From NCBI RefSeq assembly GCF_044324875.1, contig NZ_CP172185.1: a stretch of 64,000 bases of DNA; one strand, 5' to 3'. The DNA is from Escherichia coli (GTDB lineage Bacteria; Pseudomonadota; Gammaproteobacteria; Enterobacterales; Enterobacteriaceae). Position 1 is the first letter of the stretch, and every line of letters begins with the position of its first letter. The position numbers and the translations under genes were made by a program. This document shows positions 1 to 16,050 of this stretch, piece by piece. The notes beneath the pieces were generated by a model that saw only the letters and a list, made by a program, of their open reading frames with translations, ran no database searches and was not told the origin of the DNA.

Positions 1-117
1 CAAAATGAAGGCCGGTGACCAGATACCACAGTTGAACGATAAACAGAAACCTGCTGATAAAACACCGTGGCGACATGACAAAACGCCAGAGCAAAAACCG
101 TAAGCGCATTATTCGTC

Positions 118-420
118 TTGTGGAACTCTGGCCTGAGTCATTCAACCGGGAAAAAAACAAAACCACTTAAAGTGGGGATACCTGACGACCTGATACAGGA
201 TATCGCCATCCGAGAACTGGCGTTTGGCGCTGGTACATTACATGCAGCAGTGGCGTCTTATGTGCAGTCTCCGCGCTATTACCGTGCGTTAATAGCAGGT
301 GGCGCCCGTTACAACCTGAACGGTCAGCCGTGCGGGGAAGTGACACCACAGGAACAGAAAGAGGCAGAGACCCGTTTAATGATGCTGAATGACCGACGAA
401 AAGACAGAAAACCTCGTTGA
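118..420 (+). CDS. hypothetical protein (island-borne)
   Basis: 100-aa ORF from the six-frame track; begins with TTG, no ATG near the 5' end; no family recognised; opposite strand to neighbouring island genes. Confidence 0.25.
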   Translation: MWNSGLSHSTGKKTKPLKVGIPDDLIQDIAIRELAFGAGTLHAAVASYVQSPRYYRALIAGGARYNLNGQPCGEVTPQEQKEAETRLMMLNDRRKDRKPR

Positions 421-437
421 CTGCACAACAGCGCTGT

Positions 438-1190
438 TCACTGAGCTGTAATCAATGTACAGCGCTGTACCGGGCGATGGGTAATACCGGTCACAACCGG
501 TAACCCCAGAGACAATGCAACTGTTTTTAACGCAATATACTGGCCGGATGTATCACCCCGGGCAGCCTGAAAACACCTTTCCACCCGGCATTGTCCGTCA
601 GCACTTATCACCCGCCATGTCTGTTGCAATAAATCCACCCGTTGCGAACATTCTTCATCAACCGTGGCACTGACCCGTGGATGGCAAATGCTCGTCTGGC
701 TGAGCAGCAACAGGCATCGCATTGTTGCTCCTCCATGTTGTTCCCGCAACCAGCGTAATACCACCGGTGGTGCTGGACTGGCCGTGTGATTACGTTCAGT
801 AATACGCTCGTGCACCTGTCGGTAAAAGGAAGTACAGAATGCATGAATCTGTTGTCCGTTGATGTTTCCTTCTGCCGAATGGAGTGTGAAGTGGACGGCC
901 AGCAGACGCGGCCAGTGATCCACCGCCTGCTGAATAAAACGCCGGATTTCCACCGGCTCTGAAAGTACGGTTTCGGTTATTTGCACGATTTGATCCCCTT
1001 GAATGTTGCTGAACCGGTGTCGGTACGCAGGAAAGCACGCCGAGACCGGTACGATGCCTGTTACAGCGAAGAACGAGGAATGACAGACGGGGGCAGCAGG
1101 TCGCCAGCACCAGGGACAGGGCTGATTTCCACAATACCAACGCTGGTATTTTGCACATTGCCAGCGTACCGGCATTACAACACGTTTCAT
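438..1190 (-). CDS. putative YfjJ/YagK-like (inovirus Gp2-type) island protein
   Basis: ORF 438..1232 trimmed to the ATG at 1190, which overlaps the alpA stop in an ATGA arrangement (possible translational coupling). Weak resemblance to the two paralogs at 1492-3152 (HFTLH..., ...CLLLLS). Family assignment is tentative. Confidence 0.4.
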   Translation of the reverse strand: MKRVVMPVRWQCAKYQRWYCGNQPCPWCWRPAAPVCHSSFFAVTGIVPVSACFPAYRHRFSNIQGDQIVQITETVLSEPVEIRRFIQQAVDHWPRLLAVHFTLHSAEGNINGQQIHAFCTSFYRQVHERITERNHTASPAPPVVLRWLREQHGGATMRCLLLLSQTSICHPRVSATVDEECSQRVDLLQQTWRVISADGQCRVERCFQAARGDTSGQYIALKTVALSLGLPVVTGITHRPVQRCTLITAQ

Positions 1191-1423
1191 GCGGCGACTC
1201 CCCGTGATGCTTCGATGCGCTGCTGCATCCACTGCTCCACTTCGCTTCTGTACCAGCGGCTGCTGCGGCCCAGTTTGATGGGTTTAGGGAAATGGCCTTC
1301 ACTGATCAGCTTGTAAAACCATTTGTCGGTCATACCAGTGAAGCTGGTGATGTAGTTCATGTCGATCAGGGGATCGTCGGCACGCAGCAATACGCTGTCG
1401 TGACCTGTCATTGAGGTCAACAT
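1187..1423 (-). CDS. alpA: AlpA-family prophage transcriptional regulator
   Basis: 78-aa protein with the C-terminal region FTGMTDKWFYKLISEGHFPKPIKLGRSSRWYRSEVEQWM, typical of AlpA/CP4-57 regulatory proteins; start may be an internal Met. Confidence 0.7.
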   Translation of the reverse strand: MLTSMTGHDSVLLRADDPLIDMNYITSFTGMTDKWFYKLISEGHFPKPIKLGRSSRWYRSEVEQWMQQRIEASRGVAA

Positions 1424-1491
1424 GGTCAGAATGTCCTCTGTGAGATTTATGAATGTTGGGCAAATGCGGGTGAATCTGCTGAGCTGAGCTT

Positions 1492-2064
1492 TCAGAGCTG
1501 GCCTGCTACGGGATACCAGGGATTACCGGCGAGGTAACGGGCTTCCGGATCGCGCACACCACGACGATCGCGGGCGAAATCACTGAACGCCCATATCAGC
1601 TCTTTGAGTCTCTCTTCGCAGTCCGGTGAACGGGGATCCAGCAGCACATCCCGGGTAATCTGCTTCTGGTACGGTGCCGCTTCACCCGGTGACGCGAAGC
1701 CCAGTACGTTGCTCCAGGCATCCAGAATCAGCCGATCCAGTTCAGGGCCGTCGAAATATTCCTCCCTGACGCACAGCACCACGTGGTATTCCGGTTTTTC
1801 AGGATGACGAGTCAGGAGCCAGCAGAGATCACGTCCGGGGGTTGCATTCATCAGCGCACTGACGGTTTCGATAAAGGCCATACCGAACCAGGTTTTTCTG
1901 TCGCTGAAGATGTTGCCATGTTCCCCCGGCAGACGAAGCAGGATCCGCCGTATTCGGGAGCAGGGCTGCTCACGCAGCGCACGCTCAAGGACACCGATAA
2001 CTTTGCTCTGATAAGATGGCCAGAAGGGCGCCATGCTATAGTCGAAATAAGGGATAGCATTCAT
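1492..2064 (-). CDS. YfjJ/YagK-family paralog, probably N-terminally degenerate
   Basis: ORF 1492..2094 (TTG start); first ATG at 2064 gives MNAIPYF..., alignable to MNQPIH... of the paralog at 2421..3152. The conserved leader element lies about 160 bp further upstream (2231-2261) with no in-frame ATG in between. Confidence 0.4.
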   Translation of the reverse strand: MNAIPYFDYSMAPFWPSYQSKVIGVLERALREQPCSRIRRILLRLPGEHGNIFSDRKTWFGMAFIETVSALMNATPGRDLCWLLTRHPEKPEYHVVLCVREEYFDGPELDRLILDAWSNVLGFASPGEAAPYQKQITRDVLLDPRSPDCEERLKELIWAFSDFARDRRGVRDPEARYLAGNPWYPVAGQL

Positions 2065-2230
2065 AAGATATGTTCCGTTATACGCAGCCCACAACGCGTC
2101 CTGCCCGTGGATGCGCTGACGTGTTATGGCTTGCGTATGGGGTTGATGGAATAAGTGAAAAACCGCGGCAGAACGGGAAGATCAGGTAACCGACAAGGGA
2201 CAGAACACCGGATGCAGGTTCAGAATGAAT

Positions 2231-2261
2231 GATCTCCGTTGACTTCGGTTCACATCATTAA
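2231..2261. repeat. conserved leader element, copy A (GATCTCCGTTGACTTCGGTTCACATCATTAA)
   Basis: Direct repeat of the element at 3160-3195; the shared core GATCTCCGTTGA...TTCACATCATTAA is visible in the sequence. Confidence 0.6.
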
Positions 2262-2420
2262 GCAGGACAGTAAGGTTTTACCGACGGAGTGTTTCCAGGA
2301 GCGAAAGCAGAGAAAAATACCGTTGCATGACTTCAGGACGACTTTTTCAGAAAACGAGCTAAGGGCGTCAGCCAACGTCCTGTAGCATAAGCTCAGGCAC
2401 CGGATGTCGTTTTACAGGGC

Positions 2421-3152
2421 TCACCTGCCATCCAGTAGACGCCCCGGCCCACGACTGCAACCATAATTACGTTGCCCGGAACCGTTATGCAACTTCGTTT
2501 CATATTTCACGAGATAACTGGCTCTGTTCCGGGCTTTCTGCATCGCTTCCACATCACCACGCTTGACCCAGAGCACAGCGGATTCACCCGGCTTTTTGTC
2601 TGAAGCCTTCCTGGTATCAGAACATCCACCCGACAAAGGCGTATCATCGGAAGAAGGGCGAGCATCAGATGATGTCGGTTTACGGAAAGGCGTCCGCCTG
2701 GAAAAATGAACCAGTCCATTACCCTGCCAGGGCTCAAGATGCAGAGCACTACACCATGCCAGCTTGATCAGTGTCGCCAGCGAAGAAGGAACGGTGAAAT
2801 CCCCTGGCGAGCACCAGGTATCTTTGTTGAGCAGCAATATCACGTGATAATGTTTCCTGCCTTTTTCCTTGCCAAACTCCCGGCACCAGAAATAACGCAG
2901 AGTGGTTGCACGCACACGCTTGTTGGCACGTCGTTTTTTCCGCTGGTAAGCCTGAATTTTGGCTTTCAGGGATGCAAAAAAACGAGAAATCACCGCTGAA
3001 TCCGGATCGGGATCCATGATGGTGACAGGCATATACTCAGGGAAACGTAAATCCACCCGGATTAACGAGACGGCACGGTGCTGCGCCAGGGCACTGTCGA
3101 GAAGGCTGTCAAAACGGGATAACCAGTAAGCATTATGTATTGGTTGATTCAT
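2421..3152 (-). CDS. YfjJ/YagK-family (inovirus Gp2-like) protein
   Basis: 243-aa protein with LIRVDLRFP and HYHVILLLN motifs as remembered for the YagK/YfjJ family of CP4-type islands; GGAG ribosome-binding site about 10 nt upstream of the ATG on the minus strand. Confidence 0.55.
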   Translation of the reverse strand: MNQPIHNAYWLSRFDSLLDSALAQHRAVSLIRVDLRFPEYMPVTIMDPDPDSAVISRFFASLKAKIQAYQRKKRRANKRVRATTLRYFWCREFGKEKGRKHYHVILLLNKDTWCSPGDFTVPSSLATLIKLAWCSALHLEPWQGNGLVHFSRRTPFRKPTSSDARPSSDDTPLSGGCSDTRKASDKKPGESAVLWVKRGDVEAMQKARNRASYLVKYETKLHNGSGQRNYGCSRGPGRLLDGR

Positions 3153-3159
3153 GATGAGA

Positions 3160-3195
3160 GATCTCCGTTGATTTGGATTGACTTCACATCATTAA
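3160..3195. repeat. conserved leader element, copy B (GATCTCCGTTGATTTGGATTGACTTCACATCATTAA)
   Basis: Immediately 5' of the 2421..3152 start codon on the minus strand (contains its GGAG ribosome-binding site); on the plus strand it contains TTGATT-17 bp-ATTAAT, a promoter-like arrangement. Confidence 0.6.
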
Positions 3196-4282
3196 TCACC
3201 GCAGTAAAACTTTACGGCGTCCTGTCATTAAGCAACACCAGTGGCTCCTGATTAGAACAGAATGAGTTTCCCACGAACAAAAAGACAAACCTACACGCAG
3301 GGTAAAAACACGCAACAACAGCATGAATGGATTTGAAAACAATATGGATGACGAAAAATGTCAAAAGTGAAACGGATCAACAGAACGTGCAAACAAAACG
3401 TCAGAAACGCAATCAGAGCACTTTCTGGCGCTGTGAATCAACAACAACACCAAAACCTACAGCTTAACCACATTACTCAATCACGAATGCGAATGACACG
3501 TTTAAAACCTGTTTACAGATAACGCCGTAACACGATCATCCCCATCACCATCAGAATCGATTTTCTCATCCCGAAAATGTTACGTTTCACTACGCACCAT
3601 AAAAACGATTAACCATCGATAACGTAAATCTCATCTGAATCAAAAAACCAAAACCAATCATCACACTTTCGCAATGCAAGAAGAAAAACCACATCATGAC
3701 GAAAACAATGACCTTACATGAAAAAGCAAAACGTCAGGAATCGTTAATGCCTCAATCTGATTGTTATCAAAACATCCAGAAAGTCGTTTAACAGAATCGT
3801 CGTAAGCACATCGAAAAGAACGTCAGATCACCTCAGGAAAGTTCGGGTTGATTTAGCGTAAAGATACTTTTCTCAGCTTAACGTCGAAACACAAACCAAA
3901 AACCACAAACAACCAAAGCTCAGGAAAGGTTAAACGTCACATCAGTAAAATCGAATAGCAGATTGATTGCTTAAACAGAAAGGTTTTACAGCAGCTTTAA
4001 ACTGATTTTAGCTAACGTAAAGATTTACTAAACTGGATGAGTTTCAGACAAAGCAATGTGTACAGCAATGCTTAATGAAAACACTTATAGGGCTGTTTAT
4101 GAAAACACGTGTATGTCTGGTAAAACACTTAGTAGAAAATACGTGTATAACACTTACTGAAATGCTTAGTAAAAATACTTAGTAAAATATGTAGACTGGC
4201 CCCCTGAATCTCCAGACAACCAGTATCACTTAAATAAGTGATAGTCTTAATACTAGTTTTTAGACTAGTCATTGGAGAACAG

Positions 4283-4648
4283 ATGATTGATGTCTTAGGG
4301 CCGGAGAAACGCAGACGGCGTACCACACAGGAAAAGATCGCAATTGTTCAGCAGAGCTTTGAACCGGGGATGACGGTCTCCCTCGTTGCCCGGCAACATG
4401 GTGTAGCAGCCAGCCAGTTATTTCTCTGGCGTAAGCAATACCAGGAAGGAAGTCTTACTGCTGTCGCCGCCGGAGAACAGGTTGTTCCTGCCTCTGAACT
4501 TGCTGCCGCCATGAAGCAGATTAAAGAACTCCAGCGCCTGCTCGGCAAGAAAACGATGGAAAATGAACTCCTCAAAGAAGCCGTTGAATATGGACGGGCA
4601 AAAAAGTGGATAGCGCACGCGCCCTTATTGCCCGGGGATGGGGAGTAA
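4283..4648 (+). CDS. insC: IS2 transposase OrfA (InsC)
   Basis: [56 protein letters not shown]... matches remembered IS2 InsC (121 aa). Confidence 0.95.
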
Positions 4649-5511
4649 GCTTAGTCAGCCGTTGTCTCCGGGTGTCGCGTGCGCAGTTGCACGTCATTCT
4701 CAGACGAACCGATGACTGGATGGATGGCCGCCGCAGTCGTCACACTGATGATACGGATGTGCTTCTCCGTATACACCATGTTATCGGAGAGCTGCCAACG
4801 TATGGTTATCGTCGGGTATGGGCGCTGCTTCGCAGACAGGCAGAACTTGATGGTATGCCTGCGATCAATGCCAAACGTGTTTACCGGATCATGCGCCAGA
4901 ATGCGCTGTTGCTTGAGCGAAAACCTGCTGTACCGCCATCGAAACGGGCACATACAGGCAGAGTGGCTGTGAAAGAAAGTAATCAGCGATGGTGCTCTGA
5001 CGGGTTCGAGTTCCGCTGTGATAACGGAGAAAAACTGCGAGTCACGTTCGCGCTGGACTGCTGTGACCGTGAGGCACTGCACTGGGCGGTCACTACGGGC
5101 GGCTTCAACAGTGAAACAGTACAGGACGTCATGCTGGGAGCGGTGGAACGCCGCTTCGGCAACGAGCTTCCGGCGTCTCCAGTAGAGTGGCTGACGGATA
5201 ATGGTTCATGCTACCGGGCTAATGAAACACGGCAGTTTGCCCGGATGTTGGGGCTTGAACCGAAGAGCACGGCGGTGCGGAGTCCGGAGAGTAACGGCAT
5301 AGCAGAGAGCTTCGTGAAAACGATAAAGCGTGACTACATCAGTGTCATGCCCAAACCAGACGGGTTAACGGCAGCAAAGAACCTTGCAGAGGCGTTCGAG
5401 CATTATAACGAATGGCATCCGCATAGTGCACTGGGTTATCGCTCGCCACGGGAATATCTACGGCAGCAAGCCAGTAATGGGTTAAGTGATAACAGGTGTC
5501 TGGAAATATAG
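4606..5511 (+). CDS. insD: IS2 transposase OrfB (InsD)
   Basis: 301-aa protein [34 protein letters not shown]... matches remembered IS2 InsD; overlaps insC as in IS2. Confidence 0.95.
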
Positions 5512-6227
5512 GGGCAAATCCAATATGTGTAGAATTATCTATTTAAAAAGATATGTATATAACACTTAATAAAAACATGTGTATATAGTATCATACCGAC
5601 ATTCTCAACATCTTCAGACTTCCATACATACTGGGTGTTGATTTCTCACTTTTACAGCCAGCATGGAGTTTTCTGTCCTAAAAACAGAGCAGATTTACTC
5701 TGGAATTATTTTTCTGCCCCCGTATTTCAGGCCCCAGAAAAGACAATCCGAAGCAAACCGTTTGTCAGCCTCCATATCATCTTTTACCCCCGGAAAGTGA
5801 TCGCGTTTTACAACCAGAATGACAGCCATACTGATTATGTCGTCTCCCGGCCCCCTTCACATATAACATGCATGTCTGTCATTGCTTACTGCTCCACATG
5901 ACCGGATTTCACATACAGGATGCACATTCAGTGTTTTTATCGCCACTATAACAGACAGATTACTGTCGTCTTTACTCTTCAGATTGTTAATCTGACCACA
6001 AGAACAGCCGAACGGCAAAACGCCCTCCACAAGGGGCACATGAACCATAGTTGATAGCATGTTTTTCCTAATCAAGGAATAGTTCAGGAATATTTTATTG
6101 CATTAATAACTGGCGAATAATCGTTCTGTGAACACAAAATGCTTTTATTTGTAAATTTTATTGCATTGCACTCGTTTTATTGATATGGGGTTTAATAACA
6201 GATAACCCGGAAAGAAGGAGAAAACAG

Positions 6228-7019
6228 ATGACATTACGGATTAACGATCAGGGGCGAGATAAACAGAATCAATTTTTATCGAAAAATGGAGAAAATCTGA
6301 ATTCGTTAAAATCGCGTCATGTGCAGGATAGGCATTTACCTGAATGGCTTAAGGATAAAGTTGCAGCATTCTGGTTTTGTCTGGTGATAAAGGATATGAA
6401 AGTGTCAGGGAGCAGTTACTATGAACTTACCATGCAACTTCCCACTTCTGAAGAATCTGTTTGCATCAGTAAGCTGTCATCCTCAACCCATGAGATTCGG
6501 CTGGAGATCATCAGGCGATGGATTGATAGTGTAGCACAGATAGAAACGGAAGCTTTTACTAAAAATCTCGTTGATGCCATCTATAAAAACTGGAAGGAAA
6601 TCGGGAACAAAAACCAGGCTACATGGCTTAAAAAAAATCCGGAACAACTCGAGTGGGCATGGAAATATATTAACATTCGTATTCCCGAGTCACATTTAAC
6701 CTGGTTTTGCCCCGTCAATAACGAAGAGAAACGCATTGCCATCTTAGCATTGCTTAAAATACTGTATCCCGGAGATATACCATGCCAGTACAACGACAAA
6801 GAGTTTCATGTCGGGATCTGCGCTGAAGAACATTTTTACAGAAGAATGCACGACGCTTTCAGAAAACAGTTTATCGACGGGAAAAAAGATAAACGGGTAC
6901 AAATTAACGTAAAGATATCACCGTCCGCAAAAAGCGCTCTGGACAGACTGACCAGAGCGAGGAAAACAACACAGCAGGCTATTCTGGAACAACTGATTCT
7001 GAACGGTAGACTGGATTAA
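6228..7019 (+). CDS. hypothetical protein with a possible C-terminal ribbon-helix-helix-like DNA-binding tail
   Basis: ORF 6180..7019 trimmed to the ATG at 6228, preceded by AAGGAG; AT-rich; C-terminus VQINVKISPSAKSALDRLTRARKTTQQAILEQLI resembles strand-helix RHH motifs (inference). No family recognised. Confidence 0.45.
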   Translation: MTLRINDQGRDKQNQFLSKNGENLNSLKSRHVQDRHLPEWLKDKVAAFWFCLVIKDMKVSGSSYYELTMQLPTSEESVCISKLSSSTHEIRLEIIRRWIDSVAQIETEAFTKNLVDAIYKNWKEIGNKNQATWLKKNPEQLEWAWKYINIRIPESHLTWFCPVNNEEKRIAILALLKILYPGDIPCQYNDKEFHVGICAEEHFYRRMHDAFRKQFIDGKKDKRVQINVKISPSAKSALDRLTRARKTTQQAILEQLILNGRLD

Positions 7020-8002
7020 CTTTCACTACTTCCACTCCTGGCAGTTTTCCTCTTTTTGTAGTGTCTCCCGGCTGCAGGCATCAGGTACTTTTCCGTCATT
7101 TCGTTGCAGAACTCTTCAATGTAGTTAATCAGCTTCTGGTGTGCTTTCACCTTTTCTTCCCCGGGGGACGCTTTCAGATAAATGTCCTCCTTTTCCACAA
7201 GTGTATTTATAAACTCTCCCGGACATCCCTGGTTATAAAGCAACGTGAAAAACAACACATTCCCCAGTCTCTCCAGTAACTGCGATTTAACCCTGTATTG
7301 TTGTTTGCTGAGGATTGATTGTTTTATAAAGCTTAGTCTTGTTAAAAGTTGTTCAAATCCCGGTTCCAGTTTAAAAACAGATTTTAATACCAGGGACTGA
7401 TACTCCTGATAAAAAAGTTCAAACGTCGGGGATGCAGACTGACGAACAGATTTGGCTACAACCCATGGACTAAATCCCATGATTGGGATTTCCTTCGCTC
7501 CCTCCAGCGCACTCAGAGGTAGTCCAGCAATCCATGCGTCCAGCTTAGCCGAATCAATATCCCCGCTCAAAACCTCATACAAACTGCCCGTGAACGGTTG
7601 AGTCGGTTTTTTTGTTGTTTTACCTTCTGATTGCCTGAATCCATCCACTTTTCTCCGGATATTACGCGGAATCAGCATAAAAGGCGGGACATTAAGTGAT
7701 AAACGTTTACCCGTCATACGATACCAGTGGCCCACCTCAACCTTAATCCGTGTATCTGGCCTTGTATCTGGCCTTGTATCTGGCCTTAGCTCAAGTGCTA
7801 TTATGTTAAGCAGGTACAGATAACGCACCGTATAACAGTCAAAATGTTTCTCCGGATCAAACGGCTCTGATCGTTCTCTGCACACAAGTCCGCTGCGCTT
7901 CAGTATTCGCTGGGTATCTTTCCAGGCCTTACTCTGAAGAATGGTGGTAACTCTGGCTTTATTAGCAATCTCACGCAGCGCATCACTTTGTTGTGCCGTC
8001 AT
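7016..8002 (-). CDS. hypothetical protein containing a tandem (RPDT)x3 repeat
   Basis: ORF 7016..8017 trimmed to the ATG at 8002, preceded by GGAGG; AT-rich; 12-bp unit repeated three times at 7752-7787; convergent with and overlapping the 3' end of 6228..7019 by 4 bp. Confidence 0.45.
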   Translation of the reverse strand: MTAQQSDALREIANKARVTTILQSKAWKDTQRILKRSGLVCRERSEPFDPEKHFDCYTVRYLYLLNIIALELRPDTRPDTRPDTRIKVEVGHWYRMTGKRLSLNVPPFMLIPRNIRRKVDGFRQSEGKTTKKPTQPFTGSLYEVLSGDIDSAKLDAWIAGLPLSALEGAKEIPIMGFSPWVVAKSVRQSASPTFELFYQEYQSLVLKSVFKLEPGFEQLLTRLSFIKQSILSKQQYRVKSQLLERLGNVLFFTLLYNQGCPGEFINTLVEKEDIYLKASPGEEKVKAHQKLINYIEEFCNEMTEKYLMPAAGRHYKKRKTARSGSSES

Positions 8003-8108
8003 CTCTTCCCTCCACACTTTGTCACTCCAGATTTTTTCACGTCCATATTACCTGAATGATAAACCGGATTAGTGTGATCCGGTTCAGCGAAATCAACAGG
8101 ATACCGGT

Positions 8109-8993
8109 ATGTCATTCAGCCATTCTTCCCTCTCTGCACAAGTGAAATCATATCTGACGTTTCTTCCTGAAGAAATTCGCCAGAAAATCCTTGAACATCT
8201 CCACGGTGTTATTCATTACGAGCCCGTGATTGGCATTATGGGTAAATCCGGCACAGGCAAAAGCAGCCTGTGTAATGCCATTTTTCAGTCCCATATCTGC
8301 GCCACGCATCCCCTGAACGGCTGCACCCGCCAGGCTCATCACCTCACCCTGCAGATCGGTGAACGCAGAATGACGCTGGTCGATCTGCCCGGCATTGGTG
8401 AGACACCGCAGCATGATCAGGAATACCGGGCACTTTATCATCAGTTGCTACCGGAACTGGATCTGATTATCTGGATCCTGCGGGCTGATGAACGTGCGTA
8501 TGCTGCCGATATTGCCATGCATCAGTTTTTACTGAATGAAGATGCCGATCCCTCGCGTTTTCTGTTTGTTCTCAGCCATGCCGATCGCGTGTTTCCTGCT
8601 GAAGAATGGAACGACACAGAAAAATGCCCGTCCCGTCAGCAGGAACTCTCACTGGCGACAGTAACAGCCCGGGTGGCCACCCTGTTCCCGTCATCATTTC
8701 CGGTACTCTCCGTTGCAGCGCCTGTCGGCTGGAATCTTCAGGCACTGGTGTCACTGATGATCCACGCACTGCCACCACAGGCAACCAGCGCGGTTTATTC
8801 GCATATCCGGAATGAAAAGCGCACTGCGCAGGATCAGCAACACGCACAGCAGGCTTTTGGTGACGCCATCGGCCAGAGTTTTGACGCTGCCATTGCCCGG
8901 TTCAGCTTTCCGGCCTGGATGCTGCAGCTTCTGCGCAAAGCCCGTGATCGCATTATCCGCCTGCTGATCACACTGTGGGATCGCCTGTTCTGA
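8109..8993 (+). CDS. YeeP/YkfA/YfjP-family GTPase (50S ribosome-binding GTPase domain)
   Basis: P-loop GIMGKSGTGKSSLCNA and DLPG motif; layout as remembered for YkfA/YfjP/YeeP of CP4 islands. Full length here (294 aa). Confidence 0.7.
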   Translation: MSFSHSSLSAQVKSYLTFLPEEIRQKILEHLHGVIHYEPVIGIMGKSGTGKSSLCNAIFQSHICATHPLNGCTRQAHHLTLQIGERRMTLVDLPGIGETPQHDQEYRALYHQLLPELDLIIWILRADERAYAADIAMHQFLLNEDADPSRFLFVLSHADRVFPAEEWNDTEKCPSRQQELSLATVTARVATLFPSSFPVLSVAAPVGWNLQALVSLMIHALPPQATSAVYSHIRNEKRTAQDQQHAQQAFGDAIGQSFDAAIARFSFPAWMLQLLRKARDRIIRLLITLWDRLF

Positions 8994-9102
8994 ATGTCCC
9001 CGCTTTTTGACCGGCCCCGGCGATAACCAGGAAACGCATTTCCGGTTGCGTCACCACAATGCTGAAGGGCTTCGGTAAACCCTCATTCATTTCATCCATC
9101 AG

Positions 9103-9133
9103 GCCGCGTCTTCTCCGTGAGACGCGGCTTTTT
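9103..9133 (+). terminator. putative intrinsic terminator downstream of the GTPase gene
   Basis: GCCGCGTC-loop-GACGCGGC stem followed by TTTTT. Confidence 0.55.
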
Positions 9134-9178
9134 CATTGATTACGTCATTCAGTCTTAACCACTGATAAGGAGCAAAGT

Positions 9179-9997
9179 ATGCGATTAGCCAGTCGTTTTG
9201 GTTATGCGAACCAGATACGCCGTGACCGTCCGCTGACCCGTGAAGAGCTGATGCACCATGTGCCCGGGATTTTCGGGGAAGATAAACACACCTCCCGGAG
9301 CCGGAACTATACATACATCCCCACCATCACCGTGCTGGAAAGCCTGCAGCGGGAAGGCTTTCAGCCATTCTTCGCCTGCCAGACCCGCGTACGTGACCCG
9401 GGTCGCCGGGGGTATACCAAACACATGCTGCGTCTGCGCCGTGACGGGGAGATAAACGGACAACATGTCCCTGAAATTATTCTGCTCAACTCTCATGACG
9501 GTACCTCCAGCTACCAGATGCTGCCGGGTTACTTCAGGTTCGTCTGCCAGAACGGATGCGTCTGCGGTCAGTCTCGGGGGGAAGTGCGTGTTCCGCACCG
9601 GGGAAATGTGGTGGACAGAGTCATTGAAGGGGCTTACGAGGTGGTGGGCGTGTTTGACCGGATAGAGGAGAAGCGTGATGCCATGCAGTCGCTGGTCCTG
9701 CCGCCACCGGCACGCCAGGCGCTGGCACAGGCGGCACTGACTTACCGTTATGGTGACGAACATCAGCCCGTCACCACCGCCGACATTCTGACACCACGAC
9801 GCCGGGAGGATTACGGTAAGGACCTGTGGAGTGCTTATCAGACCATCCAGGAGAATATGCTGAAAGGCGGGATTTCCGGTCGCAGTGCAAAAGGAAAACG
9901 TATCCATACCCGGGCCATTCACAGCATTGATACCGATATAAAACTCAACCGCGCATTGTGGGTGATGGCAGAAACGCTGCTGGAGAGCATGCGCTGA
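9179..9997 (+). CDS. DUF932-family protein (YfjQ/YafZ-like)
   Basis: 272-aa protein in the position and with the general sequence character of YafZ/YfjQ homologues that follow the GTPase in CP4-type islands. Confidence 0.6.
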   Translation: MRLASRFGYANQIRRDRPLTREELMHHVPGIFGEDKHTSRSRNYTYIPTITVLESLQREGFQPFFACQTRVRDPGRRGYTKHMLRLRRDGEINGQHVPEIILLNSHDGTSSYQMLPGYFRFVCQNGCVCGQSRGEVRVPHRGNVVDRVIEGAYEVVGVFDRIEEKRDAMQSLVLPPPARQALAQAALTYRYGDEHQPVTTADILTPRRREDYGKDLWSAYQTIQENMLKGGISGRSAKGKRIHTRAIHSIDTDIKLNRALWVMAETLLESMR

Positions 9998-10088
9998 TGC
10001 TGTTTCCCTGAAAGTGCAGCCCTGACTCACGTCTGTACCAGTCCCCAGGCATTCTTCCATTCATTTACTTTTTATAAGGAATCATCTC

Positions 10089-10574
10089 ATGACAACCTTT
10101 TCGCATAGCTCCACCACACCTTCTGTTTCCGCAACTACTGCATCAGGGAATAACCAGTCTCAACTGGTTGCCACTCCCGTCCCTGATGAACAGCGCATCA
10201 GCTTCTGGCCGCAGCACTTTGGCCTCATTCCACAGTGGGTGACCCTGGAGCCCCGTGTCTTCGGCTGGATGGACCGTCTGTGCGAAGACTACTGCGGTGG
10301 TATCTGGAATCTGTACACCCTGAACAACGGCGGGGCATTTATGGCCCCCGAACCGGATGATGATGATGACGAAACATGGGTACTGTTCAATGCCATGAAC
10401 GGTAACCGCGCTGAAATGAGCCCGGAAGCCGCCGGCATTGCCGCCTGTCTGATGACGTACAGTCATCACGCCTGCCGTACGGAGTGTTATGCCATGACGG
10501 TTCATTATTACCGTCTGCGGGATTACGCCCTGCAGCATCCGGAATGCAGCGCCATTATGCGCATCATTGACTGA
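10089..10574 (+). CDS. antirestriction protein (ArdB/KlcA-like; YfjX/YafX family)
   Basis: 161-aa acidic protein (DDDDDETW...), position between the DUF932 gene and the radC-like gene as in K-12 CP4 islands. Confidence 0.6.
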   Translation: MTTFSHSSTTPSVSATTASGNNQSQLVATPVPDEQRISFWPQHFGLIPQWVTLEPRVFGWMDRLCEDYCGGIWNLYTLNNGGAFMAPEPDDDDDETWVLFNAMNGNRAEMSPEAAGIAACLMTYSHHACRTECYAMTVHYYRLRDYALQHPECSAIMRIID

Positions 10575-10589
10575 AAGGGGGCCGGAACA

Positions 10590-11066
10590 ATGCAACAGAT
10601 TTCCTTTCTGCCCGGAGAAATGACAACCAGAGAGCGCAGCCTCATTCAGCGGGCCCTGAAAGCCCTGGACCGCCATCTTCATGAACCCGGCGTGGCCTTC
10701 ACCTCCACGCATGCGGCACGGGAATGGCTGATTCTGAACATGGCGGGACTGGAGCGTGAAGAATTCCGGGTGCTGTATCTGAACAACCAGAATCAGCTGA
10801 TTGCCGGTGAAACCCTCTTCACCGGCACCATCAACCGCACGGAAGTCCATCCCCGGGAAGTGATTAAACGCGCCCTGTACCACAATGCCGCTGCCGTGGT
10901 GCTGGCGCACAATCACCCGTCCGGTGAAGTCACACCCAGCAAGGCAGACCGCCTTATCACGGAACGTCTGGTACAGGCGCTGGCCCTGGTGGATATCCGG
11001 GTGCCGGACCATCTGATAGTCGGTGGCAGCCAGGTTTTCTCCTTTGCCGAACATGGTCTGCTTTAA
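10590..11066 (+). CDS. RadC-like JAB-domain protein (YeeS/YkfG/YfjY family)
   Basis: JAMM motif region HNHPSGEVTPSKADRLITERL typical of RadC-like proteins. Confidence 0.75.
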   Translation: MQQISFLPGEMTTRERSLIQRALKALDRHLHEPGVAFTSTHAAREWLILNMAGLEREEFRVLYLNNQNQLIAGETLFTGTINRTEVHPREVIKRALYHNAAAVVLAHNHPSGEVTPSKADRLITERLVQALALVDIRVPDHLIVGGSQVFSFAEHGLL

Positions 11067-11128
11067 CCCGTCACAACCACATCACACCTGTTTTCACTTT
11101 TATCTTCTGTCTTCAGAGGTATCCCATT

Positions 11129-11350
11129 ATGAAAATCATCACCCGTGGTGAAGCCATGCGTATTCACCAACAGCATCCTGCATCCCGTCTTTTTCCGTTC
11201 TGTACCGGCAAATACCGCTGGCACGGTGGCACTGAAGCGTATACCGGTCGTGAAGTGCAGGATATTCCCGGTGTGCTGGCCGTGTTTGCAGAACGCCGTA
11301 AGGACAGTTTTGGTCCGTATGTCCGGCTGATGAGCGTCACCCTGAACTGA
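11129..11350 (+). CDS. DUF987-family protein (YeeT/YkfH-like)
   Basis: 73-aa protein in the conserved position between the radC-like gene and the CbeA/CbtA module. Confidence 0.6.
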   Translation: MKIITRGEAMRIHQQHPASRLFPFCTGKYRWHGGTEAYTGREVQDIPGVLAVFAERRKDSFGPYVRLMSVTLN

Positions 11351-11364
11351 GTCAGGGCATTCTG

Positions 11365-12009
11365 ATGAGCAGAATTATCACCATCACAGTGTATACGCTG
11401 GATGAACTTTCCTGCCCGGCACGGGAAAAAGCCCGCGACGGGTACCGTCAGCATCATGCTGACAGCAGCTGGTATGAAAACGTGTATGAGGACTTCAGGG
11501 CGGTCTGTGACATTGTCGGGATTGCCCTCCGCCAGCGAGTTATCCGGCTCAGCAGCGGCAGGTTTATGGAAGAGCCGTGCATCTGGTTCAGCGGCTTCAG
11601 CAGCCAGGGGGACGGAGCCTGTTTTGACGGGCGCTGGCACTGGCAGCCGGCAACAGCCAGGAAAATCCGGGAATATGCCCCGCAGGACCGTGAGCTTCAT
11701 CGTATCGCGGATGCCCTGCAGGCGGTGCAGAAGCGTAACTTCCGGCAGCTTCAGGCTGAAATCCGCCACCGGGGACGCTACTGCCATCCGTACAGCATGG
11801 ATATCACCGTCACCCGGGACAGTCCGACTGGTCAGGCTATGACAGCCGATGCGGAAGCCGCTGTCAGCGAAGCCCTGCGCGACCTGGCCTTCTGGCTGTA
11901 CCGTCAACTGGAAAACGAGTACGACCAGATGACCTCAGACGCCGCTGTGGATGAGGCCATTCTCATCAATGCATACATCTTCACCGAAACCGGTCAGCGC
12001 ACCGGCTGA
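11365..12009 (+). CDS. hypothetical protein (214 aa) between DUF987 and cbeA
   Basis: Plus-strand ORF with mixed, protein-like composition. The competing minus-strand ORF 11164..11907 is Pro/Ala/Arg/Gly-rich, as expected of an antisense artefact in GC-rich DNA. No family recognised. Confidence 0.45.
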   Translation: MSRIITITVYTLDELSCPAREKARDGYRQHHADSSWYENVYEDFRAVCDIVGIALRQRVIRLSSGRFMEEPCIWFSGFSSQGDGACFDGRWHWQPATARKIREYAPQDRELHRIADALQAVQKRNFRQLQAEIRHRGRYCHPYSMDITVTRDSPTGQAMTADAEAAVSEALRDLAFWLYRQLENEYDQMTSDAAVDEAILINAYIFTETGQRTG

Positions 12010-12058
12010 CCTGTCATCGTTAAACCATTCTTAACCACTTTTCAGAGAGGATTTTATC

Positions 12059-12427
12059 GTGTCAGACACACTCTCCGGGATAACTCATCCCGACGACAAT
12101 CACGACCGCCCCTGGTGGGGGCTTCCCTGCACAGTGAGGCCCTGTTTTGGCGCCCGTCTGGTGCAGGAGGGTAACCGCCTGCATTACCTTGCCGACCGCG
12201 CCGGCATCAGAGGCCGGTTCAGCGATGCGGATGCATACCATCTGGACCAGGCCTTTCCGCTGCTGATGAAACAACTGGAACTCATGCTCACCAGCGGTGA
12301 ACTGAATCCCCGCCATCAGCATACCGTCACGCTGTATGCAAAAGGGCTGACCTGCGAAGCCGACACCCTCGGCAGTTGTGGTTACGTTTATCTGGCTGTT
12401 TATCCGACGCCCGAAACGAAAAAGTAA
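12059..12427 (+). CDS. cbeA: type IV toxin-antitoxin system antitoxin CbeA (YeeU/YfjZ/YagB family)
   Basis: MSDTLSGITHPDDNHDRPWWGLPCTVRPCFGARLVQEGNRLHYLADRAGIRG... near-identical to remembered K-12 YeeU. Confidence 0.85.
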   Translation: MSDTLSGITHPDDNHDRPWWGLPCTVRPCFGARLVQEGNRLHYLADRAGIRGRFSDADAYHLDQAFPLLMKQLELMLTSGELNPRHQHTVTLYAKGLTCEADTLGSCGYVYLAVYPTPETKK

Positions 12428-12517
12428 ACCACCGGAATAACCTTCTGCTCCGGCCAGGTGTTTTCACCACGCCACTCTCCCCATAATTTAATCTCTCATA
12501 TCAGGAAAATCTTCAGT

Positions 12518-12928
12518 ATGAAATTATTACCCGACACACATGTACGGGAGGCATCGTGCTGCCCGTCTCCCGTCACCATCTGGCAGACACTGCTCATCCG
12601 TCTGCTGGACCAGCACTATGGCCTCACACTGAATGACACACCGTTCGCTGATGAACGTGTGATTGAGCAGCATATTGAGGCCGGCATTTCACTGTGCGAT
12701 GCGGTGAACTTTCTCGTTGAAAAATACGCACTGGTACGTACCGACCAGCCGGGATTCAGCGCAGGAGCCCCGTCGCAGTTAATCAACAGCATCGATATTC
12801 TCCGGGCCCGCCGGGCAACAGGCCTGATGACACGTAATAACTACAGAATGGTAAATAACATTACCCTGGGTAGCATCCGGGGGCGAAACGATGAAACTTT
12901 CCCTGACGCTGGAAGCCGACAGCGTTAA
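12518..12928 (+). CDS. cbtA: type IV toxin-antitoxin system toxin CbtA (YeeV/YkfI/YpjF family)
   Basis: Internal Met of ORF 12458..12928; ...[62 protein letters not shown]... matches remembered YeeV. C-terminus differs from K-12 and overlaps the next gene. Confidence 0.8.
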
Positions 12929-13316
12929 CGTACAGGCGCTGAACATGGGGCGAATTGTCGTTGACATTGATGGTGTTGAGCTCACTGAACTGATTAACAA
13001 GGTCGCTGAAAACGGTTATTCACTCCGCGTGGTGGATGAACGTGACGCTACCGAAACACCGGCGACTTCTGCCAGCTCTCATCAGTTGCCGGAAGACAAT
13101 ACAGTGATACAGAGCGTGATGCCATTAACCACTGAAACAGCGCTGGATATCCTCATTGCGTGGCTGCAGGACAATATCGACTGCGGGTCCGGAATTATTT
13201 TCGACAACGATGAGGATAAAACGGATTCGGCAGCACTGCTGCCCTGTATCGAACAGGCCAGAGCAGATATCCGCACCCTGCGCCAGCTGCAGCAGCTTCT
13301 GCACCAGAACCGGTGA
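12891..13316 (+). CDS. YeeW-like protein (DUF5983)
   Basis: 141-aa ORF immediately after and overlapping cbtA, the position of yeeW in CP4-44. Confidence 0.55.
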
Positions 13317-13343
13317 GTCTCACTCACCACGATTCATTAACCT

Positions 13344-13377
13344 GACGCCAGTCCGAATACGACTGGCGTTTTCATTT
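13344..13377 (+). terminator. putative intrinsic terminator after the yeeW-like gene
   Basis: GACGCCAGTC-loop-GACTGGCGT followed by a T-rich tract. Confidence 0.5.
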
Positions 13378-13399
13378 ATCAGAAAAAAGGGAAACAGTT

Positions 13400-14248
13400 A
13401 TGTCAGACATCACCATCTCCCGTCCGGAAGCGCTTAACGGACATACGGACCTTATCTGCTCCACAGATATCCGGCACGTTGTGACGGTACGGAATGAAGC
13501 ACTGCAACAAACCGAAAGGCTTATCCGGCAACTGGCAGAAATCTCAGCAATGACAGAAAGTATTGGCGGTAAAACTGTCCGGGACTGGGCCGTGAAACAG
13601 GATTTTCGCTGTGGCTGCTGGCTGATGGAAAAACCGGAAACCGCAATGAAAGCCATCACCCGTAACCTTGACCGCGAAATCTGGCGTGACCTGATGCAAC
13701 GCTCCGGGATGCTGAGTCTGATGGATGTACAGACGCGTGATTAATGGTACCGTTCACTGGAGGAGGATAATTTCCCGGAAATCAGCGAAGCGAATATCCT
13801 GAGCACGGCTGAACAACTGCACCGTAACAGGTATGAAATGGCTGAACGCGGCGTCATCAACCTCTTCAGGGGACTGAGCCGGACGCACAACAGCAGGTCA
13901 CCCTGTAAATTCGGCAGTAAGATTATCCTCAACAATCTGGTGAAATGGGACTGGTGGGGATTTGGTCTGAACCATGGTCCGCAGGCCGGGCAGCTTGCCG
14001 ACCTGGAAAGGATACTGTATCAGTTCAGCGGCAAACCCATACCCGATTACAGGGACAATATTATCATTCGTCTGGATGAGCACATCCGGTCCGTTCAGGG
14101 TAAAGCGTGCTATGAGGATGAGATGTTCAGCATCAGATACTTCAGGAAGGGCTCCGCGCATATCACGTTTAAACACCCGGAACTGGTGGAGAAGCTGAAT
14201 GCTGTTCTGGCGAAACATTATTCGGTAAAGTTCCATTCTTCTGTATAA
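13400..14248 (+). pseudogene. DUF4942-family gene interrupted by an in-frame TAA (13742-13744)
   Basis: ORFs 13400..13744 and 13838..14248 are in the same frame and joined by an open in-frame stretch (…WYRSLEEDNFPEISEANILSTAEQLHRNRYE…) apart from the single stop; the DUF4942 assignment is from memory of genes that follow cbtA/yeeW. Confidence 0.5.
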
Positions 14249-14555
14249 ACTTACACATCATGGGTATTGTGTCTCGCCCTGAACAAGGCCGACAGGTATA
14301 CTGCATTCGCTGAGTCATTACAGATAATGCCTCAACTGAGTTCAATCTACCTCCATGTACAACAACAATACGATGGGGGCTACATTGGGGGCTATATTTT
14401 CAAGAAAAACGTATATAGTTCAATTAAATCAATAAACTGAAAAAATTTCACCATTCCCCTCTGGGGAGAGGATTAGGGTGAGGGGCGCAAACCCGCTCCG
14501 GGGCCATTAATTACCCTGAATTTGATTATTTACACCACGGTAACAGGAACAACAT

Positions 14556-15215
14556 ATGCAGTTTGACTGGAGTGCCATCTGGCCTGCCATTCCGCTTCTG
14601 ATTGAAGGTGCCAAAATGACCCTGTGGATTTCGGTCCTCGGTTTGGCTGGCGGTCTGGTGATCGGATTGCTGGCAGGTTTTGCACGCACCTTCGGTGGTT
14701 GGATAGCCAACCACGTCGCGCTGGTCTTTATTGAAGTGATCCGCGGCACACCTATCGTCGTCCAGGTGATGTTTATTTATTTCGCCCTGCCGATGGCGTT
14801 TAACGACTTACGCATCGACCCGTTTACTGCGGCGGTGGTCACCATCATGATCAACTCCGGCGCGTACATTGCGGAAATCACGCGTGGTGCGGTGCTGTCT
14901 ATTCACAAAGGTTTTCGTGAAGCAGGACTGGCGCTCGGTCTTTCACGTTGGGAAACCATTCGCTACGTCATTTTACCGCTGGCACTGCGTCGTATGCTGC
15001 CGCCGCTGGGTAACCAGTGGATCATCAGTATAAAAGATACCTCGCTGTTTATTGTTATCGGCGTGGCGGAACTGACCCGTCAGGGGCAAGAAATTATTGC
15101 CGGTAACTTCCGCGCCCTTGAGATCTGGAGCGCCGTGGCGGTGTTCTATCTGATTATTACCCTGGTGCTGAGCTTTATTCTGCGTCGTCTGGAAAGAAGG
15201 ATGAAAATCCTGTGA
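14556..15215 (+). CDS. glnP: glutamine ABC transporter permease GlnP
   Basis: 219 aa; matches remembered K-12 GlnP. Confidence 0.95.
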
Positions 15216-15934
15216 TTGAATTTAAAAACGTCTCCAAGCATTTTGGTCCAACCCAGGTGCTGCACAATATCGATTTGAACATTGCTCAGGGCGAAGTCGT
15301 GGTGATTATCGGGCCGTCCGGTTCCGGTAAATCGACCCTGCTGCGCTGCATCAACAAACTGGAAGAAATCACTTCCGGCGATCTGATTGTCGATGGCCTG
15401 AAGGTTAACGATCCGAAAGTTGACGAGCGCCTGATTCGCCAGGAAGCAGGTATGGTGTTCCAGCAGTTTTACCTCTTCCCGCATCTGACGGCGCTGGAAA
15501 ACGTCATGTTTGGTCCGCTACGCGTGCGTGGCGCGAACAAAGAAGAGGCGGAAAAACTGGCGCGTGAGCTGCTGGCGAAAGTCGGCCTGGCAGAACGCGC
15601 TCACCACTACCCTTCCGAGCTTTCTGGTGGTCAGCAACAGCGTGTGGCGATTGCCCGTGCGCTGGCGGTAAAACCGAAAATGATGCTGTTCGATGAACCG
15701 ACTTCCGCTCTTGACCCGGAACTGCGCCATGAAGTGCTGAAGGTTATGCAGGACCTGGCTGAAGAAGGGATGACGATGGTGATCGTGACCCACGAAATCG
15801 GTTTTGCCGAGAAAGTAGCTTCGCGCCTGATCTTTATCGACAAAGGCCGGATTGCGGAAGATGGCGATCCGCAGGTGTTAATCAAGAACCCACCGAGCCA
15901 GCGCTTGCAGGAATTTTTGCAGCACGTCTCTTAA
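15212..15934 (+). CDS. glnQ: glutamine ABC transporter ATP-binding protein GlnQ
   Basis: 240 aa; Walker [10 protein letters not shown] and signature LSGGQQQR; matches remembered K-12 GlnQ. Confidence 0.95.
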
Positions 15935-15942
15935 CTTCTCAG

Positions 15943-15966
15943 CCTCCCTTTCCCCCGAAAGGGAGG
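15943..15966 (+). terminator. GC-rich hairpin downstream of glnQ (possible terminator)
   Basis: CCTCCCTTT-CCCCCG-AAAGGGAGG; no clear U-tract, so low confidence. Confidence 0.3.
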
Positions 15967-16050
15967 CACACCAGATTCCTCTCATTTAAAATCGCCCCTC
16001 CCCCAGCATCTATACTTATCTTTTTGCTCTGTTTTCTCACTGGAGGAGTC

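Follow-up and report, generated by a model that had tools for sequence, protein, structure and literature searches.

The non-coding gap at 14249-14555 is, with high probability, the attR junction of a large genomic island that was inserted site-specifically in the glnH-glnP spacer by a P4-like tyrosine integrase. The gap lies in the window, the whole stretch of 64,000 nucleotides of Escherichia coli DNA (64 kb) that was analysed. Judged on sequence, the anatomy of attR and attL is that of an integrase-mediated site-specific insertion and not that of a deletion. The claim of the initial annotation that the island lies next to glnP and that glnH is absent was confirmed, with the refinement that the island DNA ends 101 nt before the glnP start. 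The features of the island and of its junction are as follows.

1-14454, plus strand: ~14.4 kb at the right-hand end of the island, from its ORFs and its similarity to the island of strain GPEC1040
8109-8993: GTPase, ORF in the island module
9179-9997: DUF932, ORF in the island module
10089-10574: antirestriction, ORF in the island module
10590-11066: RadC, ORF in the island module
13400-14248, plus strand: DUF4942, the last island gene, in two ORFs (13400-13744 and 13838-14248), codirectional with glnP
14249-14454, plus strand: island-derived attR arm, non-coding, with no K-12 counterpart at this locus
14375-14394, plus strand: two direct GGGGGCTA(C/T)AT repeats, candidate arm-type integrase sites; the same pair is found in attL arms
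14455-14468, plus strand: attR core TCCCCTCTGGGGAG, a 14-bp direct repeat common to attL and the crossover region; K-12 homology starts here
14463-14485, plus strand: two G-blocks of the BoxC/PIT/TMECO repeat, GGGGAGAGGATTAGGGTGAGGGG; the C-rich arm is replaced by island DNA
14469-14555, plus strand: native distal glnH-glnP spacer with the glnP ribosome-binding region (AGGAA near 14543), aligning base for base with K-12
14556-15215, plus strand: glnP, intact, 219 aa, protein identical to K-12 GlnP
15212-15934, plus strand: glnQ, intact, 240 aa, N219D being the sole difference from K-12

Island ORFs end at 14248 with a DUF4942 fragment, and the 307 nt that follow are non-coding, in agreement with the earlier statement that the ~300 bp 5′ of glnP hold no glnH coding sequence. 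The gap is only partly of island origin: positions 14249-14454 are island DNA, and the 101 nt at 14455-14555 are native and align with the 3′ part of the 138-nt K-12 glnH-glnP spacer. Alignment of 14249-14555 to that spacer placed the breakpoint at 14455, where K-12 homology restarts 38 nt past the glnH stop (in the coordinates of the K-12 locus, glnH stop at 2463, start of the window match at 2501 and glnP start at 2602). Of the spacer, the window thus retains the final 101 nt; only glnH and the first 37 nt are missing. The switch from island to chromosome takes place inside the 14-bp core TCCCCTCTGGGGAG, whose aligned K-12 counterpart is TCCCCTATGGGGAG. Over 14455-15934 the identity to K-12 is 97.6%, and glnQ is followed by ybiO, rlmF, mcbA and fiu in the K-12 order. 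The glnQ-ybiO spacer has 260 nt in K-12 and ~116 nt in strains Br_112_kylling and ECCNB12-2, to which window 15935-16050 is similar; the 750-aa ybiO ORF, which has a TTG start at 16024, was probably called too long.

Position 1 of the window already lies within the island, and the genes of the preceding 14 kb are, as had been proposed, island genes: a CP4-like module extends over the 14.4 kb in the order Gp2-family, GTPase, DUF932, antirestriction, RadC, DUF987, YeeU/CbtA and DUF4942. The closest island relatives of the window (99.5-99.7% identity) are located not at gln but at other loci, beside frlR, fabI and ygfF. With the island of GPEC1040, which occupies a different locus, identity is 99.5% over 90% of the length and the 14.4 kb are co-linear except for one IS insertion: ~1.35 kb missing from the GPEC1040 island coincide with the ORFs of an IS3-family (IS2-like) element at 4238-5511 (~4.2-5.5 kb). 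The same split of DUF4942 (WP_225103084.1 / WP_225103085.1) is present in GPEC1040, strain 135 and TUM9803, which suggests a recent common ancestor of these copies despite their four different loci. The arm at 14249-14454 is likewise conserved in other genomes, beside frlR, fabI, ygfF and ulaD. A tRNA-like target was considered and rejected: the core and its flanks contain no tRNA, and an Rfam E-value scan of 13800-14800 was empty.

The distribution of the junction was analysed with a 601-nt query (window 14100-14700) in 5426 complete E. coli genomes. It matched 5420 of them, in all but four only at query positions 356-601, that is, from window 14455 onward. The remaining four, Br_112_kylling, ECCNB12-2, 23CRST013 and UTME-7, carry a DUF4942-glnP junction like that of the window with 87-96% identity over the query, and across the island side no match in the 5426 genomes exceeded 96%. 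The crossover point is moreover common to eight junctions read at six other loci. The same junction in four independent complete genomes and the shared crossover point argue that it did not arise by chance.

In K-12 the empty site consists of glnH, the 138-nt spacer and glnP, with no insert. A BoxC/PIT/TMECO repeat begins ~30 nt past the glnH stop, and its first hairpin, which reads CCCTCTCCCC-TAT-GGGGAGAGG in K-12, is the attB site; in every junction examined the change from chromosome to island occurs at the same CCCC-NNN-GGGGAG core. The core TCCCCTCTGGGGAG is found at window 14455-14468, the only end of the core repeat visible for the window genome, and at the attL of Br_112_kylling and ECCNB12-2, and K-12 has the single copy TCCCCTATGGGGAG. 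The gln attL reads ...cagttccctctCCCCTCTGGGGAG|gatctattgatatc..., and attL and attR together rebuild the K-12 spacer. Pairs of GGGGGCTA repeats are located in the attR arm (14375 and 14387) and in the attL arms just 5′ of the integrase start at gln, frl and ula; from this placement, the paired GGGGGCTA(C/T)AT repeats are plausible arm-type integrase binding sites. The integrase at the gln attL, WP_001131672.1, is a 397-aa tyrosine integrase, and the integrase domains (Arm-DNA-bind_3, Phage_int_M and Phage_integrase) correspond to a P4-like architecture.

We propose that the integrase would catalyse the insertion of a circular island, with an attP of the form ...caccattCCCCTCTGGGGAGgatctattg..., into the BoxC hairpin. 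The predicted attP of the excised circle is ...TTCACCATTCCCCTCTGGGGAGGATCTATTGATATC..., and the attL expected for the island of the window is ...CCCTCTCCCCTCTGGGGAG|GATCTATTGATATC...; the attL arm of these islands reads GATCTATTGATATCAACTGATTTCAACAGAG. After integration, the left end would keep glnH and the 37 nt of spacer that follow it, with the core beside the integrase gene; at the right end the core would precede the other 87 nt of spacer and glnPQ, as is seen in the window; glnH would be displaced by the length of the island, 27-108 kb in related copies, and not deleted. Strand exchange presumably takes place within or beside GGGGAG. At the frl site attL has the chromosomal loop TTT and attR the island loop TCT, pointing to an exchange 3′ of the loop. 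One exchange position does not explain every junction, since the loop at the glnH junction of SCU-387 is GCC (core CCCCGCCGGGGAG), versus TAT or TCT in the chromosomal site, and that of the TUM9803 attR is TTT. The GCC loop may reflect another position of exchange in SCU-387 or another native allele. The end of island homology varies among the other loci, falling at 14459, 14468 or 14485-14489.

Regarding the missing gene, neither K-12 GlnH (tblastn) nor the K-12 dps-glnH DNA (blastn) gave other than chance matches to the 64-kb window (E of at least 0.3), so that glnH, glnP and glnQ are not contiguous and glnH is found neither in the 14.5 kb 5′ of glnP nor elsewhere in the window. No integrase was found by tblastn either, and attL is likewise outside. 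Because the window contains no integrase, attL or glnH, the left half of the argument rests on other genomes. A left-end query running from the glnH 3′ end through attL into the 5′ end of the integrase gene was compared with the 5426 complete genomes and fully covered in 18 of them (0.3%), including all four with the DUF4942-glnP junction. Under every one of these 18 matches glnH is annotated, and the glnH CDS entry, read in three genomes, each time gives WP_000843866.1, the K-12 protein; for Br_112_kylling and ECCNB12-2 the reading covered the complete CDS. In ECCNB12-2 the order is dps, glnH, integrase WP_001131672.1, an island of ~27 kb, DUF4942 and glnP, and the distance from glnH to glnP, co-linear and on the same strand, is 27 kb in ECCNB12-2, 40 kb in 23CRST013 and 73 kb in UTME-7.

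The fourth genome is arranged differently. In Br_112_kylling glnH and its integrase are at 2.568 Mb and glnP at 4.196 Mb, 1.63 Mb apart. To the left of glnP an 82-kb composite runs back to an integrase at tRNA-Pro (proL) near yejM, and the left part of the gln island is with glnH and the gln-type integrase, 1.63 Mb away. This layout is consistent with a large inversion between two islands, roughly symmetric about the terminus. An inversion between a repeat at proL and the one at gln was discarded as the primary cause: downstream of proL K-12 has no copy of the target repeat, and in Br_112_kylling an integrase follows glnH. On the simplest account of both facts, integration at gln came first and the rearrangement later. 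Hence contiguity of glnH and the island in the source genome of the window is not guaranteed. By analogy with these genomes, glnH in the strain of the window has very probably been displaced by the island and not lost. Thus, of the two outcomes offered by the initial annotation, replacement of glnH by the island does not agree with a breakpoint that lies in a recombination core 38 nt downstream of the K-12 glnH end and leaves the sequence on the glnP side complete. Location of glnH beyond the island is favoured by analogy, as glnH followed by the integrase is found in all four genomes with the same junction; its contiguity with the island holds in three of the four.

The BoxC/PIT/TMECO repeats have been known since the 1990s. 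The repeat follows the consensus CCCTCNCCC-N3-6-GGGNGAGGG-N3-GGGNGAGGG, with one mismatch allowed (PMC4666352). The K-12 element at gln, CCCTCTCCC-CTATG-GGGAGAGGA-TTA-GGGTGAGGG, fits it with one mismatch. Only the BoxC G-blocks are left in the window (14463-14485), as the sole copy there, against a chance expectation of 0. A 70-nt query that covers the K-12 element matched a median of 15 places per E. coli genome, and the same arms and crossover point are found at yhfS-frlR, ycjD-fabI, gcvP-ygfF, lptG, zntA, ypfG and ulaD-ulaE. Junctions at BoxC loci other than gln were read as follows.

yhfS-frlR: GPEC1040, attL and attR
ycjD-fabI: strain 135, attL and attR; PK-F-10122, attL
gcvP-ygfF: TUM9803, attL and attR
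downstream of lptG: CM2, attL
downstream of zntA: HCM-27C-1, attL
downstream of ypfG: 23CRST013, attL

K-12 carries the repeat between yhfS and frlR, and its listed BoxC copies include frlR-yhfS, fabI-ycjD, ygfF-gcvP and zntA-tusA (PMC5100583). The nine BoxC attL sites examined resemble ...cccctcgCCCC(T/C)T(T/C)GGGGAG|gatctattgatatc..., with single-base variants of the C-rich half at some loci, and all BoxC attR sites read ...ttcaccattCCCCT(C/T)TGGGGAG|agg(g/a)ttagggtgagggg and continue into locus-specific sequence. The identical integrase WP_001131672.1 is present at the gln, lptG, ycjD and ypfG copies, and the near-identical WP_072648864.1 at those of ycjD, gcvP and zntA; identical or near-identical integrases are found at no fewer than six BoxC loci besides gln. 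We advance tentatively, as a reading with somewhat less than even support, that a single family of P4-like island integrases may use the dispersed BoxC repeats as attachment sites.

The islands at the ula site carry a more distant branch of the integrase family, with DNA that is 84-90% identical, and share with the others the attL and attR arms, the GGGGGCTA repeats and the shape of the core (CCCCGGCGGGGAG). They differ in their target, which is not a BoxC repeat but a site within the first ~60 nt of ulaE, at the 5′ end of its coding sequence. The use of CCCCGGCGGGGAG at ula suggests that the enzyme reads the short palindromic core and does not need the whole BoxC repeat. The ula site is occupied far more often than gln (64 versus 18 of the 5426 complete genomes). 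Insertion there replaces the native 5′ end of ulaE; the ulaE annotated by PGAP is nonetheless full-length and has a new start. Strain 23CRST013 (NZ_AP045773.1) has three integrase copies of this family, at gln, ula and ypfG, providing ample homology for rearrangement between islands.

Other origins of the junction have to be weighed against site-specific insertion. That the island deleted or replaced glnH, leaving the permease and the ATPase without their periplasmic glutamine-binding protein, would agree with the absence of glnH sequence from the 64-kb window, yet it is highly improbable: the breakpoint falls in a conserved recombination core 38 nt downstream of the glnH stop, attL and attR rebuild the whole spacer, glnH is annotated in 18 of the 18 genomes with an integrase at the site and all three copies read encode WP_000843866.1. 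A more serious alternative, although still unlikely, is that glnH is intact but was moved megabases away by a later inversion or rearrangement between islands, as in Br_112_kylling, where the glnP-side half of the island runs back to proL and yejM; several homologous islands per genome are frequent, three integrase copies being present in 23CRST013. Against it, glnH and glnP flank one continuous, co-linear island in three of the four analogues (27, 40 and 73 kb), and the window shows no sign of a second breakpoint, its 14.4 kb being co-linear with the GPEC1040 island apart from the one IS.

Homologous or illegitimate recombination between dispersed BoxC repeats, with no involvement of the integrase, could also bring island DNA to glnP, for instance by transfer of an island end that was at another BoxC locus. 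The 23 nt at 14463-14485 equal those of junctions at other BoxC loci but for one base, the island of the window is 99.5-99.7% identical to the copies at the frlR, fabI and ygfF BoxC loci, and BoxC/TMECO loci have been reported as unstable (PMC4666352). This origin is nevertheless very unlikely, for the transitions occupy the same core position at every locus, ula included, where the target is coding and has no BoxC homology beyond the core of 13-17 nt, and each island has its integrase immediately inside attL and conserved sequences in both arms. An assembly artefact caused by repeats might be suspected at a junction that lies on a dispersed repeat, with island modules that are multi-copy in E. 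coli; it is scarcely credible when the same DUF4942-core-glnP junction occurs in four independently finished genomes with exactly the structure that site-specific integration predicts.

Site-specific insertion by the integrase bears on the expression of glnPQ. The glnH promoters are one σ70 and one NtrC/σ54 promoter. With tens of kb inserted, glnPQ would no longer be transcribed from them, and the initial annotation was right in regarding the two genes as cut off from their native promoters. A transcript of glnPQ could come by read-through from codirectional island genes or from a weak local promoter. A consensus scan of 13300-14700 found no σ70-like promoter, and the sole terminator-like hairpin in that interval lies at 13344-13370, upstream of DUF4942, with none between 13371 and glnP. 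On these two results, read-through from the DUF4942 region is the most likely source of the glnPQ transcript. Folding of the spacer RNA with and without the island indicated that the first hairpin is weakened or shortened and the second kept, which is not decisive on function. GlnH, being periplasmic, could serve GlnPQ in trans if glnPQ is expressed. The predicted phenotype is a reduced or deregulated high-affinity glutamine uptake, and not the loss of the binding protein.

The insertion site itself is already published, and the window contains another island there. Pathogenicity islands carrying papGII have been described at a ‘gln’ site, defined as glnP-glnH, with integrases specific for the insertion site (Biggel et al. 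2020, PMC7686366), and an insertion “between glnH and glnP genes” is mentioned by Royer et al. 2021 (PMC8097792). Like the island of the window, papGII islands such as PAI SCU-387 occupy the glnH-glnP spacer; their integrase gene follows glnH directly. SCU-387 is one of the 18 genomes and carries a pap/ireA island beside glnH. Over the stretch read, which stops short of glnP, its module facing glnP has the gene families of the window (Gp2-family, GTPase, DUF932 and antirestriction) in the same order. Its attL and integrase DNA are ~92% identical to those of the closest relatives of window type, with the attL loop GCC, and its cargo is pap and ireA, in contrast to the poultry-isolate type of the closest relatives of the window. 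Neither the att core nor its BoxC identity appeared in the published text searched of the two papGII-island papers (PMC7686366, PMC8097792).

P4/CP4-type islands are found at tRNA genes, as are CP4-44, CP4-57 and CP4-6 of K-12. The island of the window resembles them in the P4-like integrase domains and in the end module of GTPase, DUF932, antirestriction, RadC, YeeU/CbtA and DUF4942, and differs in that its target is not a tRNA or tmRNA gene but a short palindromic core in an intergenic repeat (or in coding sequence, at ula).

The papers on the BoxC/PIT/TMECO/HPGQ repeat assign it no function (Holder et al. 2015, PMC4666352; Kaplan et al. 2016, PMC5100583), and transposase or integrase remnants were “never found” around TMECO sites (Holder et al. 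2015, PMC4666352). The window differs from the repeats treated there in that the C-rich arm is replaced and the full triplex/hairpin motif is gone. In the literature searched, with incomplete coverage, no description was found of the att core, of its BoxC identity or of one integrase that uses several BoxC loci, and a search for links between frl, ycjD or BoxC and integrases, with the same incomplete coverage, found nothing relevant. The link to BoxC is the only part of the analysis that possibly holds something new.

As the question was posed, the junction of the window matters little, being an ordinary attR at a published and uncommon insertion site. For the strains that carry such an island, splitting of the operon means that high-affinity glutamine uptake may escape nitrogen control by NtrC/σ54. 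Use as an attachment site would give BoxC a concrete biological role, near-identical islands being found at a minimum of seven copies of the repeat in different strains, and the typing of islands on the premise that one integrase means one site calls for caution. If BoxC targeting is true, an island of 80-110 kb could land at many positions of the E. coli chromosome, sometimes splitting operons, and targeting of multiple sites would explain some of the ‘genomic instability’ that has been described around BoxC repeats.
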